In this document: one piece after another, positions 17,449-25,269 of the stretch
How the letters are laid out: every line of letters starts with the position of its first letter
How positions within the stretch are numbered: the stretch's first letter is position 1
Origin: an uncultured Gemmatimonadales bacterium
GTDB lineage: Bacteria > Gemmatimonadota > Gemmatimonadetes > Longimicrobiales > RSA9
Direction: 5' to 3'
DNA length: 64,000 nt
Assembly: GCA_963798085.1 (NCBI GenBank)
Contig: CAWCRS010000007.1
Coordinates: forward strand, 1-64,000
Translations under genes and position numbers: made by a program
Notes under the pieces: model-generated
What the model was told of the DNA's origin: nothing
Databases searched by the model: none
The model's input: the letters and a program-made list of their open reading frames with translations, nothing else

Positions 17449-18441
17449 CTACCTCCGTGACCACCGGATCCCCACGCAATGCAGCACCCCGAACAGCTCG
17501 TAGTTCTGGTACGCGTAGTCGACGGCAATGGGCCCGAGGGTGACACCGCCACCGAACAGGATGGCGCCCTGGCCACCCGAGCCGGCGGCGCCGTTGTAGC
17601 CGACGCGCGCGACCGCGCCCACGCGGGAGCTGGCGCCCGGCAGGAGCCCGGCCTCCACGCCCGCGAGCAGGCCGGCGCCGCCGCCCGAGAACGGCGCGAC
17701 CAGATCGGCGGACAGAATGGCGCCCATGCCGGTGGGTCGCGCCAGTTGCAGCATGCCGCCGACTCTCGCTTCCTTTGGCAGTGCCGCATCGGCAATGCCA
17801 TCGCCGCTCAGCGAGCCCCCAATGTTGCGCAGGGCGGCACCCAGCGTGAGGCTGGACAGCGCGTATTGTGCGCCCACGTCGAGGAACGGCGTGCCGCGGC
17901 CCGTGCCGGCCAGATCGGTCGATACCCAGCCGGCGCTGGCGCCCAGATGGAAGCGGCCGTCGTTGAAGGGCAGTGCGGCGCTGAGCCGGGCCGCGACTTC
18001 CGATGCGCTCACAGTGTTCCCGGTCGGAACCCCTGTCTGGCCGCCAAAATCAGGATCGGGCACGAGCTCCTGGACGCTGCCGTAGTCGAGGTAGATGGCG
18101 CTCGCGCCCACCACCAGCCGGCCGACGCGCACCGCGCCGGCGCCACTGGCAACACCAATGTTTTCGACGTGCTGCTGGTAGCTGAACGAGAATGCGCCCA
18201 GCAGACTCGCCGCGCCCGCCGGATTGTAGAACAGAACGTCGGCGTCGCCGGTCGCCCCGACATAGGCGCCGGACAGCGCTGCTGCACGGCCGCCCGCCAG
18301 CAGCTGCAGCACCGTGGCGCCCGTGGTGCCCGCGCCCTGCGCGGCCACCCGGCTCACGGGTATCAAACACGCTGTCAGTGCGGCCAGCGCCGCCGCCCGC
18401 CCGCGCAGGATGCTGCGCGCGATGCCTCTGCTGCGATTCAT
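17449..18441 (-). CDS. PorV/PorQ-family outer-membrane beta-barrel
   Basis: Own GGAG SD, ATG and signal peptide; GGRAAALSGAY..A.GDA..LFYNPAG motif; amphipathic strands ending DYAYQNY.LFG.LH..GIRW. Confidence 0.75.
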   Translation of the reverse strand: MNRSRGIARSILRGRAAALAALTACLIPVSRVAAQGAGTTGATVLQLLAGGRAAALSGAYVGATGDADVLFYNPAGAASLLGAFSFSYQQHVENIGVASGAGAVRVGRLVVGASAIYLDYGSVQELVPDPDFGGQTGVPTGNTVSASEVAARLSAALPFNDGRFHLGASAGWVSTDLAGTGRGTPFLDVGAQYALSSLTLGAALRNIGGSLSGDGIADAALPKEARVGGMLQLARPTGMGAILSADLVAPFSGGGAGLLAGVEAGLLPGASSRVGAVARVGYNGAAGSGGQGAILFGGGVTLGPIAVDYAYQNYELFGVLHCVGIRWSRR

Positions 18442-21285
18442 GACTGCGGCTCCGGTCGTGCCGGTGAAGAGCGCTGCCGGCGTGAGAACAATGAGTTTCT
18501 GGCGGAACGTCTGCCCGTTGACCGTGAAGATGAGCAGGTAGACGCCCGGTGCCACCAGTTCGGAATGGTCGTTCCTGAGATCCCAGCGGGTGTACGTGGC
18601 ACCCAGCGTCGCGCCGCACTGCACGGCCTGTGTGGCGCACAGGTCGATTACCCGCCGCCCCGTGACCGTGTACACCGCGGCCGTGCCGGGTGACTCGGCG
18701 AAATTGAAGACCACGAACGCGTGGCGCACGGGATTCTCGCTCAGCGACAGCAACTCCTGGCTGCGCAGCACCGTAGTGCTGGCCGGGCCGGACGCAACCA
18801 CCGCGACGGGTGAAGACAGCAGGTCGATTGCACCCGAATTGACGCCACGCGAGTGCAGCTCCGCCGGCACGAGTGTCGCCTCGAAGGTGGCGCCGTTGAC
18901 GGCCTGGCCGGACAGCTCCACCTCGAGGAACACTGGTGTTACCAGGAAGGGCGAGGCACGCAGCGAGTCGGGATGAAAGACGGCGCGTTGCGTGCCGCCT
19001 GTCAGCGGGAGCAGCAGCGAATCCACAGCAATGTCGCCCGTGCCGGGCTTGCCATCACCATTGTCGCGCACCAGCAGCAGCCTGGCACCAGGATCCGTGC
19101 CTTTCACATCGAAGCCTATGGCGGTGAGCGCGATCGGCTCGAAACCCTGTGATTCGAGATTCAATTGCAGTAGCGGCAGGCGGGCGCCGCGGCCACCCAG
19201 CGTGGGCTGTGAGGGTACGGCGGCAGCCGCGGTGACCGCGAGCGGCGAGGGCTGTCCATCGGAGAGCGCGAGCAGCGCCGCCTGCACGTCGAGTTTGCCC
19301 CAGCCCCACCAGTCGCCGGCCTTGCCGCCGGGCACCACGTCGTACGTGTTCGACGTGAACGCATCATGCGCTGCGCTGCCCGCCAGCGCGCCCTTCACAT
19401 CTTCCGGCGTCAGTTCGTGATTGGCGGAGAGCAGCACCGCGACCGCGCCCGTGACCTGCGGTGCGGACATGCTGGTGCCTTCCCGCGCCGCGTGCGCACC
19501 GTCCGGCGCGATGCGCGTGGCTGCCAGCGACGCATCGTGCGAATGCGACGAGATCACACCCAGTCCCGGCGCCGTGATCTCCGGCTTCATGCGTCCATCG
19601 CGCGTGGGGCCGGCGGCAGAAAACCGCGCGAGATCGCCCAGCGCCTCCCGCTGCGTGTAGCAGACCTGTCCGGTGGTGGCAACGCTGGGCCAGCAGAGTC
19701 GGGTCACGAATGCGCCCACTGTAATGGCGCGTTTGGCTGTGCCCGGTGAGCCCACCACGAAGCGATTGTCGAATCCCTGGCCGCCCTCCACCACCAGACC
19801 CGCCGAACCGTAGAGCCACATGTCGTAGGGACGACCGGAGCCGCCGTGCGCGGGCGTCACACGCAGCGTCCAGGTGCCGGCCTCGGGCACACCGCTGGTG
19901 TCGCAGCCACTGACATCGACGGCACCTTCGACATCGCCATTCTCCGGGTTCGTCCCGCCTGAGCCATTGTCAATGCGAATGCGACCCGCTGCGTTCTGAT
20001 CCGTCGTCAGCCCGCCTCGCACCGCCGTCGCCGTGCTGCCGCTCGGCCGCTGCAATGTGAGGGTCAGTGAATCCAGGGCGTCGTACCAGAAGCTCAGTTC
20101 GAAATAGGTGCCGTCGCAGTGACTGGCACCCGCCGTGTAGGGCGAGATGATGATCTGGAACTGCAATGTCGCCGTGCCCGTGGGTGTGCCGCGTGCGTGG
20201 ATCAGCTGACCCGGGAGCAGCGGTGTGGTGTTGTTGTTGACGCCGTTGTTCCCCGCGGAAATGACGACAATGAAGCCCGGGCCCGAGAGTGCATCGATGA
20301 TCCTCTCGTAGGTGCGGCTGCCATCGTGCGCGCCGAACTCGCCGCCCAGCGAGAGATTTGCCACCACCGGCCGGTTCAGGCGCAGCCCTTCCTGGCGCAG
20401 CCAGGTCAGGCCATCCACGATCTTGTCCTCGAAGAAGACGCCGGGTCCGCCATTGACCACGAGCAGATCGGCGCGCGGCGCCACACCGGCGTAGCGGAAC
20501 TGGTCGGGATTGGGACCAGGCGCCGAGCCATCGCCCGCCGCAATGCCGGCCACGTGCGTGCCATGACCGATGGTGTCCTTCTCGCGACAGCCTGCGGTGC
20601 CGTTGCTGTCCACCGCCTGCTGCACGCTCTCAGGCGTGCAGTAACTGCCACCCACGAAGCCTTCGGGCGGTGTGCCACCCGTGGTCTGGTCCCAGACCCC
20701 GAGCACGCGCGTCTTGCCCGACGCATCGATGAAGTCCTGGTGTTGCAGGTCGAGGCCGGTGTCGTAGAGCCCGACGATCGCGCCCTGTCCGGCCGCACCC
20801 TGCCACTCACCGTTGACCAGGGTGCGCAGTCCATCGACGTGAATCGCGCGACCGCTGGAATCGTCTTCCAGCCGCAGTGCGTGGGCTGCCTCGATGCGCG
20901 TGATGGCAGGCGAACGCGCCAGCGCGTCCAGCGCGCTCAGCGGCACGCGCGCGGTCGCGTAGCGATCCACCACCGAGCCCACTTCGCCGCCCAGCGCCCG
21001 CACTTCCGCCAGCGCGGCCGGTCCCGTGATCGTGAGGAAGACACCCAGCACCGGCTCGGCCAGTGCGCTGCTGCGCTGCAAGGCCAGCGATCCGCCGAAC
21101 GGCTGCGTCCCGGGTGGCGACAGCGGGTTGACCACGGCGCGCGCCAGGATGCGCGCGCGCGTGGCCGGTCGCATGACCTCGCGCAGCACCGGGTCCAGCT
21201 TCTCCACCTGCTGCGCCGCCGCGGGCGAAACGGCGCACAGGATGAACAGCAGCAGAAACAAGGGCCGGCTGCGACGCCCGAACAG
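18438..21285 (-). CDS. S8 (subtilisin-like) serine peptidase with T9SS type-A-like C-terminal domain
   Basis: Catalytic motifs GLYDTG, GHGTHVAGIAAG and GTSMSAP; signal peptide; CTD ENPV..VYTVTGRRV..WDLRN..VAPGVYL..KLIVL. Reads in frame into the PorV gene in this assembly. Start codon uncertain. Confidence 0.88.
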
Positions 21286-21305
21286 TTTGTTAGAAGGCGC
21301 CGGCG

Positions 21306-23157
21306 CTAGATCTTTTCCAGCCAGACGTGCCTGCCTTTCAGCGTATCCTGTGCCAGACGGTAGGTCGCGAGGTCCTCGTTGTGGAAGACGTCGTGGAAGG
21401 AACGCGCGACCCGGCGCCTCGCCTGACGGCAGAACACGTCGGCCAGCTGGACCGGGCTCCGGTCTTCGGGATGCTGCCGCAGCATCTGCTTCGCCTTCAC
21501 GCAGGCGGCCGACATGGCAAACAGCTCCGCACCGGCGTCCACCAGGCGGAACAGCACCGCCTGGCGCCGCTCCAGCCGGCCGCCGAAACGGCTCATCGCG
21601 TAGAACAGCATGCGGCCCAGCTTGCGCGACTTGCGCTCGATGAAGCGCATGTGTGAGGCCAGCGGTCCGAACGCACCGAAGCGCGGCCACCAGCCCCAGC
21701 CCAGCACCAGGCCCGGGAACCACGTGGCCATGTGTGCGCTCAGGCTGGTGAGTCCGCTGAGCTTTGCGCCCACACTGGCGTGCGGGTCCAGCATGGCACC
21801 CGCTTTCTGCAGATGCGGGTCCACCGCTTCACGCGCGATGAACAGCCGCATGATCTCGCTGGAGCCCTCGAAGATCGTGTTGATGCGCAGGTCGCGCATG
21901 ACCCGCTCGACCGGAATGCCTTCCTCGCCTCGCGAGATCAGCGACTCCGCCGTCTCGTACCCGCGGCCGCCGCGGATCTGCATCGTTTCATCCACGATGC
22001 GCCACGCCGCTTCCGAGTTGTACATCTTGGCGATCGCGGCTTCCAGCCGGATGTCGGACCGGCCCGCATCGGCCAGCCCCGCCGCCAGCTCGGTGACGGC
22101 TTCCATGGCGAACGTCGTCGCCGCCATCCAGCCGATCTTCTGCGCGATAGCATCGTGTTTGCCCACTGGCTGGCCCCACTGCACCCGCTGCCCGCTCCAC
22201 TCCCTCGCCACATGGAGGCACCACTTGGCGGCTGCCGCCGATGTCGCGGGAATCGTCAGGCGACCGGTGTTGAGTGTGATCAGCGCCAGCTTCAGACCCT
22301 TGCCCTCGCCCCAGATGATGTTCTCCCGGGGCACGTGCACATTGGTGAAGCGGATCACGCCGTTCTCGATGCCGCGCAGACCCATGAATTCGAGCCGGTG
22401 TGCGACCTCCACGCCCGCTGCACTGGCTTCCACGATGAACGCCGTGATGCCCGGGACGCCGTCCGTCCCTCGCCGGCGTGCGCGCCATCACCACCATCAC
22501 GTCGGCTATCGGACCGTTCGTGCACCACAGTTTCTCGCCGTTCAGCACGAAGGCGCTGCCGTCTTCCGTGGGCGTCGCCGTCGCGCCCATGCGCGCAGGA
22601 TCCGAACCCACATCCGGTTCCGTCAGTGCGAACGCAGAAATGTCGCCCTGCGCCAGCCGCGGCAGGTACTTCTTCTTCTGCTCCTCCGAGCCGAACATCT
22701 TGAGCGGCTGCGGTACGCCGATCGACTGGTGCGCCGACAGCAGCACGCCAATCGCGCCGCAGCACGTGCTGATCTGCGCCATGGCGCGGTTGTAGCTCGT
22801 CTGCGAGAGCCCCAGTCCGCCGTACTCGCGCGGGATCTTGATGCCGAACGCGCCAATGTGGCGCAGCCCATCGATCACCGCTTCCGGCACCTTGCCCGTG
22901 CGCTCGATCTCCGCGGAATCCACGGTCGCCGCGAATGTGTTCAGCTTGTCGAAGAAGACCTGCGCTCTCGCCTGCTCGTCCGCATCGGGCTGCGGCGGCG
23001 GATCGATCAGGTCCAGCCGGAGCCGTCCCAGAAACAGCTCGCGCACGAAGCTCGGCTGCAGCCACTCCGTCTCTCGCGCCGCCTCCGCAACCTGCCTCGC
23101 CTCCTGCTCGCTCACGCCCGCGCGCTGCGCCGGCGCCTTCTCAGCCGTTGTACTCAT
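21306..23157 (-). CDS. Long acyl-CoA dehydrogenase (one frameshift at ~22460)
   Basis: SAHQSIG, AFALTEPDVGSD, LNGEKLWCTNG, QIRGGRGY and RDLRINTIFEGSSEI. Confidence 0.92.
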
Positions 23158-24483: not shown

Positions 24484-24599
24484 GCGGACTCCTTGCGTTT
24501 TCAGGGCGGCGGAAATGCTGGAGGCGGATGCCGAATTGTAGTTTCGACTGTGTTACCCGGCCAGAGGCCACGGCTTCCCGGCGTGCGGGGAAAAGCCTG

Positions 24600-24640
24600 A
24601 TAAACAGGAGCGCCGCACGAGCCAGGCCCGGCGGCGCTCC
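24600..24640 (-). terminator. Intrinsic terminator-like hairpin
   Basis: Perfect 10-bp stem GGAGCGCCGC/GCGGCGCTCC, extendable with a G.U pair on the minus strand, followed by TGTTTA. Confidence 0.65.
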
Positions 24641-24716
24641 CTTCTCCCGCAACCCGACGCGAAGCCGTTCACGCGGCGTGGTAGCGGACAGGCTTACGTA
24701 TTCTCGCTGCTCTCGG

Positions 24717-24779
24717 CTACCTGCCGATTCGGCGATCGCTTGCCCGTGTCGGGTTACGAGAAGTACTCGAACTGGCCAA
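24717..24779 (-). CDS. Putative 20-aa small ORF MASSSTSRNPTRASDRRIGR
   Basis: AAGGAGGTGATCC (13-nt complement of the 16S 3' end) with GGAGG 7 nt before a TTG start; TAG stop. Confidence 0.5.
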   Translation of the reverse strand: MASSSTSRNPTRASDRRIGR

Positions 24780-24916
24780 GGGATCACCTCCTTCGTTCAG
24801 TGGATGTATGGGCTCAACGCCAGCGGGCTCGCTATCGCGTCCCGCGGTCCGCCGCCGCTTCGCTCCTGGCGCCCCGGCGACGGCCCATGCCCGCGTTGCC
24901 GCGAGCAACCGCCAGA

Positions 24917-24945
24917 ACACTAAACGACGGCTGTGCACATGGCAA
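24917..24945 (-). promoter_or_regulatory. Sigma70-type promoter
   Basis: TTGCCA-17 nt-TAGTGT on the minus strand. Confidence 0.55.
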
Positions 24946-25035
24946 GCCACACTTGCCGGAGGCGTGCACCCCGGTTCAACTTGCGGCCCGCTCGCGAGGC
25001 TGCACGAGAACACGACCGCAGAGGAACCCGCTGCA

Positions 25036-25269
25036 ATGGACGCAGACCGGCTCGACTCGCTGACCGACCTCGTGCGCCGAGTCCGTCATGACGCCAGCGG
25101 TTCGCTCACCGTTGCGCTCGGCCACATTCGCCTGCTCCTCAATGGACCCGCCGCGCTGAACGAAGACGCACAGCGCAGTCTGCGCGTGGTCGAGGAAGAG
25201 CTGCGCCGCATCGTCGCCACCCTGCGCCGTCTCGACGCACCGCGCGCCGTACCGCCGCGCGAGGGCTGA
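25036..25269 (+). CDS. Stand-alone HisKA (dimerization/phospho-acceptor)-like protein
   Basis: 77 aa, RVRHDASGSLTVALGHIRLLL H-box-like helix plus a second helix; GAGGA SD. Confidence 0.65.
   Translation: MDADRLDSLTDLVRRVRHDASGSLTVALGHIRLLLNGPAALNEDAQRSLRVVEEELRRIVATLRRLDAPRAVPPREG

Follow-up and report, generated by a model that had tools for sequence, protein, structure and literature searches.

The stretch of DNA analysed here, called the window below, comprises positions 1 to 64,000 of the forward strand of contig CAWCRS010000007.1 (assembly GCA_963798085.1) from an uncultured Gemmatimonadales bacterium. Its minus strand carries, at 24600-24945, a compact element that lies ahead of an acyl-CoA dehydrogenase gene. 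Direct inspection of the sequence found every feature that had been named beforehand, in a sequence-only reading, at its place. The features of the element and its surroundings are:

24940-24945, minus strand: -35 hexamer TTGCCA, separated by a 17 nt spacer from the -10 hexamer (sequence)
24917-24922, minus strand: -10 hexamer TAGTGT, with transcription predicted to start at about 24910 (sequence)
24895-24909, minus strand: 5' hairpin, its place kept and its sequence varying among homologs (folding and homologs)
24846-24886, minus strand: optional leader stem L2, with a base GGGCC/GGACC that includes an internal G.A, and a variable upper stem (covariation)
24823-24845, minus strand: optional leader stem L3, GCGGG/CCCGC (87.3% paired, little covariation)
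24810-24813, minus strand: conserved GCCC, a possible partner of the GGGC bulge (kept in 70 of 70 loci)
24781-24793, minus strand: 13-nt extended Shine-Dalgarno sequence (SD) AAGGAGGTGATCC, complementary to the 3' end of the source genome's 16S rRNA
24717-24779, minus strand: short open reading frame (sORF) of 20 codons, with a TTG start at 24779 and a TAG stop ending at 24717 (sequence and frame conservation in homologs)
24748-24761, minus strand: 5' strand of P1, formed by ORF codons 7-11 (compensatory changes at all 12 P1 pairs)
24742-24745, minus strand: invariant GGGC bulge (homolog alignment)
24731-24737, minus strand: internal anti-SD GATCGCC, whose partner is either the SD or, as P2, 24666-24659 (covariation and folding)
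24680-24691, minus strand: segment able to pair with the 3' strand of P1 in place of the ORF strand, as alternative helix B (73% paired, one strongly covarying pair)
24644-24666, minus strand: 3' strands of P2 and P1 (covariation)
24600-24640, minus strand: terminator-like GC hairpin with a weak U tail and a 10-bp stem, 24640-24631/24616-24607 (sequence, folding and homologs)
24535-24563, minus strand: separate promoter-like site TGGCCG-17-TACAAT of the acyl-CoA dehydrogenase gene, outside the element (read from the sequence only)

The earlier reading had proposed a self-contained transcription unit with a translated sORF, built from the promoter TTGCCA-17-TAGTGT, the 5' hairpin, a perfect anti-16S SD, the TTG-to-TAG frame of 20 codons and a 10-bp GC terminator about 120 nt before the acyl-CoA dehydrogenase genes. 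All of these are present, the terminator stem lying 124 nt before the dehydrogenase start (24483), and the homologs described below support the unit as a whole. A long hairpin around the second half of the ORF, now the structure with the strongest support, was absent from that reading. The SD is an exact complement of the source genome's 16S tail; this 13-mer occurs twice in the 6.2-Mb genome, in the element and antisense to the 16S end, and of three further 13-nt matches to the 16S tail in another register none contains the full AGGAGG. The 313-nt RNA is more stable in its predicted fold than shuffled versions are (z -3.3; one of 100 equalled it). A simple promoter and terminator scan called neither the element's promoter nor its terminator, and made no call at the dehydrogenase promoter-like site.

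Several other observations were made in this genome. A short divergent ORF at about 24974-25269 (plus strand), before gcvH, looks by eye like a histidine-kinase dimerisation helix pair and had no match in Pfam or NCBIfam; several family members carry an ORF of similar size at the same place. A second acyl-CoA dehydrogenase gene (21306-23157, minus strand) is split into an N-terminal half at 21988-23157 and a C-terminal half at 21306-22433 in overlapping frames, likely through a frameshift or sequencing error. A 1424-codon frame at 17449-21723 (minus strand) joins a subtilase domain, with no stop between them, to a further domain resembling a separate outer-membrane protein gene, a possible fusion. 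Outside the window, 22 tRNA genes lie on one strand at C5:189593-193300, as is typical of mobile or phage-derived tRNA arrays, and a tRNA-SeC gene was called at C7:1567194-1567292. The genome's tmRNA is at C7:1551847, ARAGORN found neither tmRNA nor tRNA in the window, and a tmRNA identity of the element, which would call for a tRNA-like domain and a resume codon, was rejected.

With a 371-nt region as query, BLAST found matches in 55 of the 61 genomes from the same order, and in 53 the E value was 1.1e-4 or lower; across the phylum, 70 of 301 genomes had a match. When 65 copies were used to build a covariance model, it gave matches in 71 of the 150 phylum genomes scanned, which fall into seven families of the class; each had one match, apart from one marginal second match, and 18 genomes of five further families gave none. 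Inspection of 20 of these matches showed 18 to be true and two to be false matches to coding sequence. The exact 19-nt SD-start pattern was found once each in 93 of 251 phylum genomes (reversed control, 0), and among the 120 loci listed in a GTDB pattern scan 112 carry the element and 8, from outside the Gemmatimonadota, lack it and are chance matches. A record titled Gammaproteobacteria (L108) belongs to a genome within the Gemmatimonadota sample; the named records that bear the element are Gemmatimonadota. In samples of three other phyla, SD-start patterns, which in their exact form miss divergent copies, occurred in 1 of 151, 3 of 101 and 1 of 101 genomes, always before ordinary long ORFs. 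The long form had no match in IMG/VR and only short chance matches in plasmids. In divergent forms the ORF is 11 or 14 codons long and there is a single hairpin. Separately, two viral-contig loci in IMG/VR carry an extended SD, an ORF of 11-13 codons and downstream hairpins unlike either form. The homologs are mutually related, so these counts are not independent. The element is a real, class-wide RNA gene, present as a single copy in many genomes.

The sequence-only reading had recognised no named RNA family, and Rfam indeed returned only chance-level matches, none on the core of the element; the conserved homologs and covariation for which it had asked were both found. In the literature, with PMC11109978 considered apart from its supplementary genome list and alignments, no description of the element in Gemmatimonadota was found. 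The gcsH motif in the accessible part of PMC11109978 comes from Desulfobacteraceae and is unrelated.

Conservation shows that the element has a promoter and a terminator of its own and is transcribed from the one to the other. Upstream of 127 of 170 homologs there is a TTGnnn-16/18-TAnnnT pattern, against 4.7 expected from shuffles, and a terminator-like hairpin of at least 8 bp lies downstream of 143 of 172, with a T-rich tail in 101. RNA was seen in one relative, L193, whose stretch is present in 17 RNA runs, four of which (X13, X2, X18 and X16) were examined. In X13 the element forms a separate 264-nt contig (1521-1784) with a depth of 718, against 10.5 and 33.7 for the flanking contigs, a weak hint because these are contigs only, uncontrolled by a DNA run, and their depth does not allow genes to be ranked. 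A longer contig in X2 likewise ends at 1784, the metatranscriptome X18 contains a contig at 1518-1776, and in X16 the element is uncovered. The equivalent promoter of L193 predicts a start at 1785, and contigs from two studies end at 1784, with the same reservation as for the level. The element is probably an abundant RNA. The 100-nt leader of L193 (1685-1785, minus strand) is unrelated in sequence to that of the source copy and partly common to two other loci, so that there is a second leader type.

The reading frame is strongly maintained. Every one of 70 loci keeps the conserved block in frame with the start (at a distance of 34 nt in 63, 31 in three and 37 in four, that is, seven three-base indels). 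The frame is also kept in 110 of 112 pattern-scan loci, a set unfiltered on frame, and in 171 of 173 copies after removal of duplicates across overlapping sets. The frameshifted copies, L104 and L107, have lost the old-frame stop and acquired new-frame stops at codons 20 and 21, a pattern that an assembly slip would not produce. A stop in the expected place in 173 of 173 copies was left unused as evidence, being partly circular, because the set had been pre-filtered on an ORF length of 10-30. The stop codon itself varies (TAG 35, TGA 22 and TAA 13 in the 70 loci), and the 191 copies span 11-23 codons. Their start codons are TTG in 180, GTG in nine and ATG in two.

Codons 7-16 make up the 5' strand of the fold with the best support, a long hairpin that comprises P1, the GGGC bulge, P2 and a stop-codon hairpin, P3. 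In P1-P3, 91.7% of cells are paired, with 125 compensatory cells against 32 when shuffled, and the covariation of 0.254 (shuffled, 0.161) was reached by none of 500 shuffles; slid controls gave 0.02-0.07. The P2 5' strand GATCGCC also complements GGTGATC of the SD, and all seven of its bases can pair with the copy's own SD in 166 of 173 copies. Within this anti-SD all five transitions that preserve pairing occur; of the two possible that would break it, one was never seen and the other was seen once, together with a compensating change in the SD. Both segments are nearly invariant, so the evidence for their pairing rests on this one compensatory case. Folding predicts the SD/anti-SD helix in 122 of 172 truncated RNAs and in 31 of 172 full-length RNAs. 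The duplex of the source copy is no stronger than the best site of shuffled ORFs (z -0.33), and the mean z over 191 copies is -1.36. Two full-length folds of the source copy are predicted at -161.8 and -158.4 kcal/mol, a gap of 3.4. The gap between folds grew no wider when the interior of the hairpin was shuffled (median 3.8 vs 3.1 kcal/mol; the real gap was smaller in only 60 of 137), and this negative control leaves helix B without energetic support. A post-translation OFF fold is predicted in only 56 of 172 copies.

Upstream of the SD, GCCC lies 19-24 nt before AGGAGG in 70 of 70 loci. Its long-range pairing with GGGC is compatible with the alignment (99.2% paired) but nearly invariant, and remains a candidate; it appears in at most 12 of 168 predicted folds, made by folding that is unable to model pseudoknots. 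The leader of about 100 nt with three hairpins is optional, its motif occurring in 38 of 70 loci. L2 and L3 together are 77.4% paired, with a covariation of 0.189 against 0.119 shuffled (0 of 500 shuffles as high). The GCGGG/CCCGC stem noticed in the sequence-only reading corresponds to L3. Two other leader pairings in that reading exist in the source copy but do not extend to its relatives: the ATGGGC/GCCCAT closing stem has all six pairs in only 2 of 30 leader-bearing homologs, and the proposed pseudoknot is paired in homologs at the shuffle level (55.0% vs 54.0%; 154 of 500 shuffles as high).

Short RNAs of comparable design, the rre mini-mRNAs, have been described once, in Alphaproteobacteria and with no function assigned (Hahn et al., RNA Biol 2016/17, PMC5711450). 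According to the accessible text of that report, rreB is a 165-nt RNA with 14 codons, 17 nt of complementarity to 16S rRNA and an SD predicted to be mostly paired; it co-sediments with 30S subunits and is weakly translated, and its half-life rises from 10 to 37 min once the start codon is removed (PMC5711450). We lean towards the view that the element is a ribosome-docking mini-mRNA of the rre/CC2171 kind, in which translation flips the fold of the RNA, as the best overall explanation. The course of events would be as follows. Transcription would run from the element's own promoter to its own terminator. As judged from the experiments on rreB, the 13-nt SD on the 16S tail and the UUG start would give tight 30S binding and slow initiation. 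In the nascent RNA the anti-SD within the ORF is predicted to cover the SD; in the finished RNA the P1/P2 hairpin is predicted to capture the anti-SD and so to free the SD. A ribosome reading the ORF would unzip P1/P2 and stop just past the anti-SD. The 3' half would then refold on itself, the anti-SD would cover the SD again, and the RNA would be shut off and turned over, as may be suggested by the destabilisation of rreB by its start codon. Such an RNA would likely act as a self-limiting sensor of translation activity, persisting in the ribosome-bound state while initiation or elongation is slow and being cleared when they are fast. The fold switch, in just this translation-triggered form, is a plausible but tentative part of the model.

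An alternative is a sponge or storage RNA, an abundant transcript that ties up small subunits through its long SD and lowers initiation during slow growth, translation merely releasing them. The 13-nt complementarity, the non-AUG start in 189 of 191 copies and the high contig depth in L193 would all fit, as would the co-sedimentation of rreB with 30S (accessible text of PMC5711450) and the 4.4-fold, non-specific rise of the Caulobacter RNA CCNA_R0051 under mitomycin C (accessible text of PMC6237742). A fixed stop position is, however, unneeded for a sponge, and 20-fold overproduction of rreB left growth unchanged, ribosomes being judged by the authors to be far more numerous (accessible text of PMC5711450). 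We regard this role as unlikely.

The conserved anti-SD-like 7-mer and the independent transcription unit could also indicate a dual-function sRNA, in which translation decides whether the anti-SD seed is exposed for pairing in trans with the SDs of target mRNAs; CC2171-like metagenome copies have a similar internal segment. Yet the 7-mer fits the unusual 3' extension of the element's own SD rather than ordinary AGGAGG sites, and elsewhere in the 3' part of the element the homolog alignment shows no conserved stretch left unpaired. Regulation in trans seems to us quite improbable.

If the 20-aa peptide were the product, as a small ribosome- or protein-binding factor or an arrest peptide, the conservation of ORF length and frame and the recurrence of R/W-A-S-D-R among the peptides would be accounted for; ribosome footprints on the Caulobacter ORF (PMC4117421) and the clade-level peptide conservation reported by Hahn et al. 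(accessible text of PMC5711450) point the same way. Conservation nevertheless acts at the level of bases, with amino-acid changes that preserve base pairs. Wobble positions are frozen on codons rare in the source genome while the amino acids change: GCA is kept in 170 of 171 copies, codon 3 is AGT in 128 copies and AGC in nine (genome use, 7% vs 34%), and codon 2 is TCT in 119 of 173 (genome use, 1.7%), the source copy having GCC. Moreover, L104 and L107 encode a different C-terminal half, the short-form peptides share only M-S-S/T, the 11- and 14-codon forms having no motif in common with the 20-aa peptide, and RreB and RreR are described as unstructured (accessible text of PMC5711450). It appears that translation, rather than the peptide, is selected; the peptide would be a by-product, and its being the product has only a small chance of being right.

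The sequence-only reading had offered three options, of which a ribosome-binding RNA fits best; a riboswitch or leader-peptide attenuator of the acyl-CoA dehydrogenase operon, another of the three, is unsupported. A structured leader, an sORF and a terminator do resemble an attenuator. Most loci of the source's family do have the dehydrogenase gene 3' of the element and on its strand, and the Caulobacter RNA also adjoins an acyl-CoA dehydrogenase gene, though convergently. However, the element is inverted between gcvH and the dehydrogenase gene in L028, is separated from that gene by an IF-2B-family gene on the opposite strand in L008, and adjoins other genes in four further loci. Among the 40 more distant loci, Pfam names a wide variety of neighbours, several of them convergent: topoisomerase IB, EamA, AhpC/TSA (convergent), peptidases of families M16 and M50, and PQQ proteins all occur. 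Neither SmpB nor tmRNA turned up as a neighbour among 45 and 62 flanking proteins run against Pfam, the flanks having been picked by a rough heuristic and many having no match. The element thus holds no consistent same-strand position 5' of functionally related genes, no conserved antiterminator was seen, and the dehydrogenase gene has a promoter-like site of its own. Because neighbours and orientation vary, we consider an acyl-CoA dehydrogenase riboswitch or attenuator very unlikely.

A divergent 6S or Ms1-like RNA polymerase-binding RNA would suit an abundant, single-copy RNA of 170-320 nt in a genome that has no Rfam 6S match, also none beside zapA, but is scarcely credible, since the element does not fold into a long rod closed by pairing of its 5' and 3' ends around a central bubble, reaches no 6S (RF00013) score in Rfam, and has a conserved translated frame, which is not known as a 6S feature. 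A literature search likewise gave no pairing of 6S RNA with Gemmatimonads, and the 6S RNA of this class may be divergent or absent.

The proposed working of the element has parallels in two well-known kinds of RNA. In ribosome-mediated attenuators of the trpL and ilvB-II type, the translating ribosome chooses between mutually exclusive helices, and in type I toxin mRNAs with a super-SD an over-long SD limits translation, as is proposed here for both respects. The element differs from both in having no controlled downstream gene and one copy per genome, and its peptide is neither enriched in a sensed amino acid nor hydrophobic.

The sequence-only reading had ranked the locus as the window's best candidate for an undescribed system. 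This is not supported, as the same type of RNA has been published as rreB/rreR (PMC5711450, accessible text) and catalogued as Rfam CC2171. In that text, rreB is placed in Bradyrhizobiaceae and rreR in Rhodobacterales, the search by Hahn et al. found Alphaproteobacteria only, and neither Gemmatimonadetes nor CC2171 is mentioned. Term searches of the accessible parts of PMC10117765 and PMC12612679 did not turn up rreB, and the literature searched yielded no later work on rre. A possible link to alpha-r9/BjrC1505 found no support.

Judged by the accessible description of rreB and rreR, the likeness is considerable. All are short stand-alone transcripts with their own promoter and terminator and variable neighbours; the SD is extended 3' to ...GUGAUCC, with a non-AUG start one base later; and an ORF of 14-20 codons follows an SD predicted to be sequestered in a hairpin, in the element through the predicted SD/anti-SD helix. 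In two rreB-type copies (14 codons, adjoining a tRNA-Gly gene), codon 2 is likewise UCU and the sequence G(A/G)UCGCC recurs internally. The differences are equally clear. Complementarity to 16S rRNA is 13 nt in the element (12-14 in 160 of 191 copies) and 16-17 nt in rre, where it reaches the first base of the start codon; only 7 of 191 copies have 16-17 nt and 4 of 191 reach the start codon. The sORF that follows the SD has 11-23 codons in the element's copies and about 14-18 in rre. The element further differs in its UUG start in place of GUG, its phylum, the long P1/P2 hairpin with the GGGC bulge, the optional 100-nt leader and an unrelated peptide.

Rfam RF01867 (CC2171) is, by coordinates, Caulobacter CCNA_R0051 and holds the ORF CCNA_03965. 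Its model matched 7 of 12 homolog loci at the element, with 22-28 bits against a gathering cut-off of 75, and did not match the source copy. At its 5' end the CC2171 consensus has the same SD, followed by a GUG start and UCU, and at its 3' end a GC terminator, an arrangement found in the element too, the source copy itself having GCC at codon 2; the alignment covers the SD and terminator only, the middle being unaligned. A metagenome scan yielded 120 loci with a GTG/ATG-type module, of which 109 distinct copies with ORFs of 14-29 codons were analysed. These CC2171-like copies also carry the internal anti-SD, whose duplex with the copy's own SD lies below the shuffle mean in 103 of 109, and complementarity to 16S rRNA is at least 16 nt in 106 of 109. 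With codon 2 unforced, seven of nine IMG/VR matches had TCT; since this codon is not dictated by the 16S tail, it leans towards common descent, without proving it. We infer that CC2171 and rre are of one kind. Ribosome footprints on the Caulobacter ORF amount to 2049 RPKM in minimal medium and to 0 in rich medium, the RNA values being 1696 and 1334 respectively (PMC4117421), and CCNA_R0051 has been validated by northern blot with no known condition (10.1101/2022.01.24.477521) and is higher in G1 (PMC5988900).

That a class of a distant phylum has retained the gene vertically, one copy per genome, shows that the design is not a curiosity of one lineage. The Gemmatimonadota copies add natural variants that indicate selection on frame and stop position, not on peptide sequence, as well as covariation for a hairpin that competes with the internal anti-SD, and so provide, for what was an orphan RNA, a definite and testable model in which it senses ribosome activity. 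Should the model fail, an unannotated abundant RNA family deserving an Rfam entry would still stand. A bolder and unlikely reading is that rre-type RNAs form a cross-phylum class of regulatory RNAs that engage ribosomes and whose signal is translation itself, a one-pass switch counting active ribosomes with the peptide irrelevant, which the extra leader in the source's order would gate by sensing a ligand or protein; with its natural frameshift variants and its ORFs of 11, 14 or 20 codons, the Gemmatimonadota set would allow a direct test in cultured species. Because the element falls short of the 16S complementarity of rre and of the CC2171 score cut-off despite the similar working, it is best regarded as a variant, not a member, of rre/CC2171, and it very probably works as rre does.
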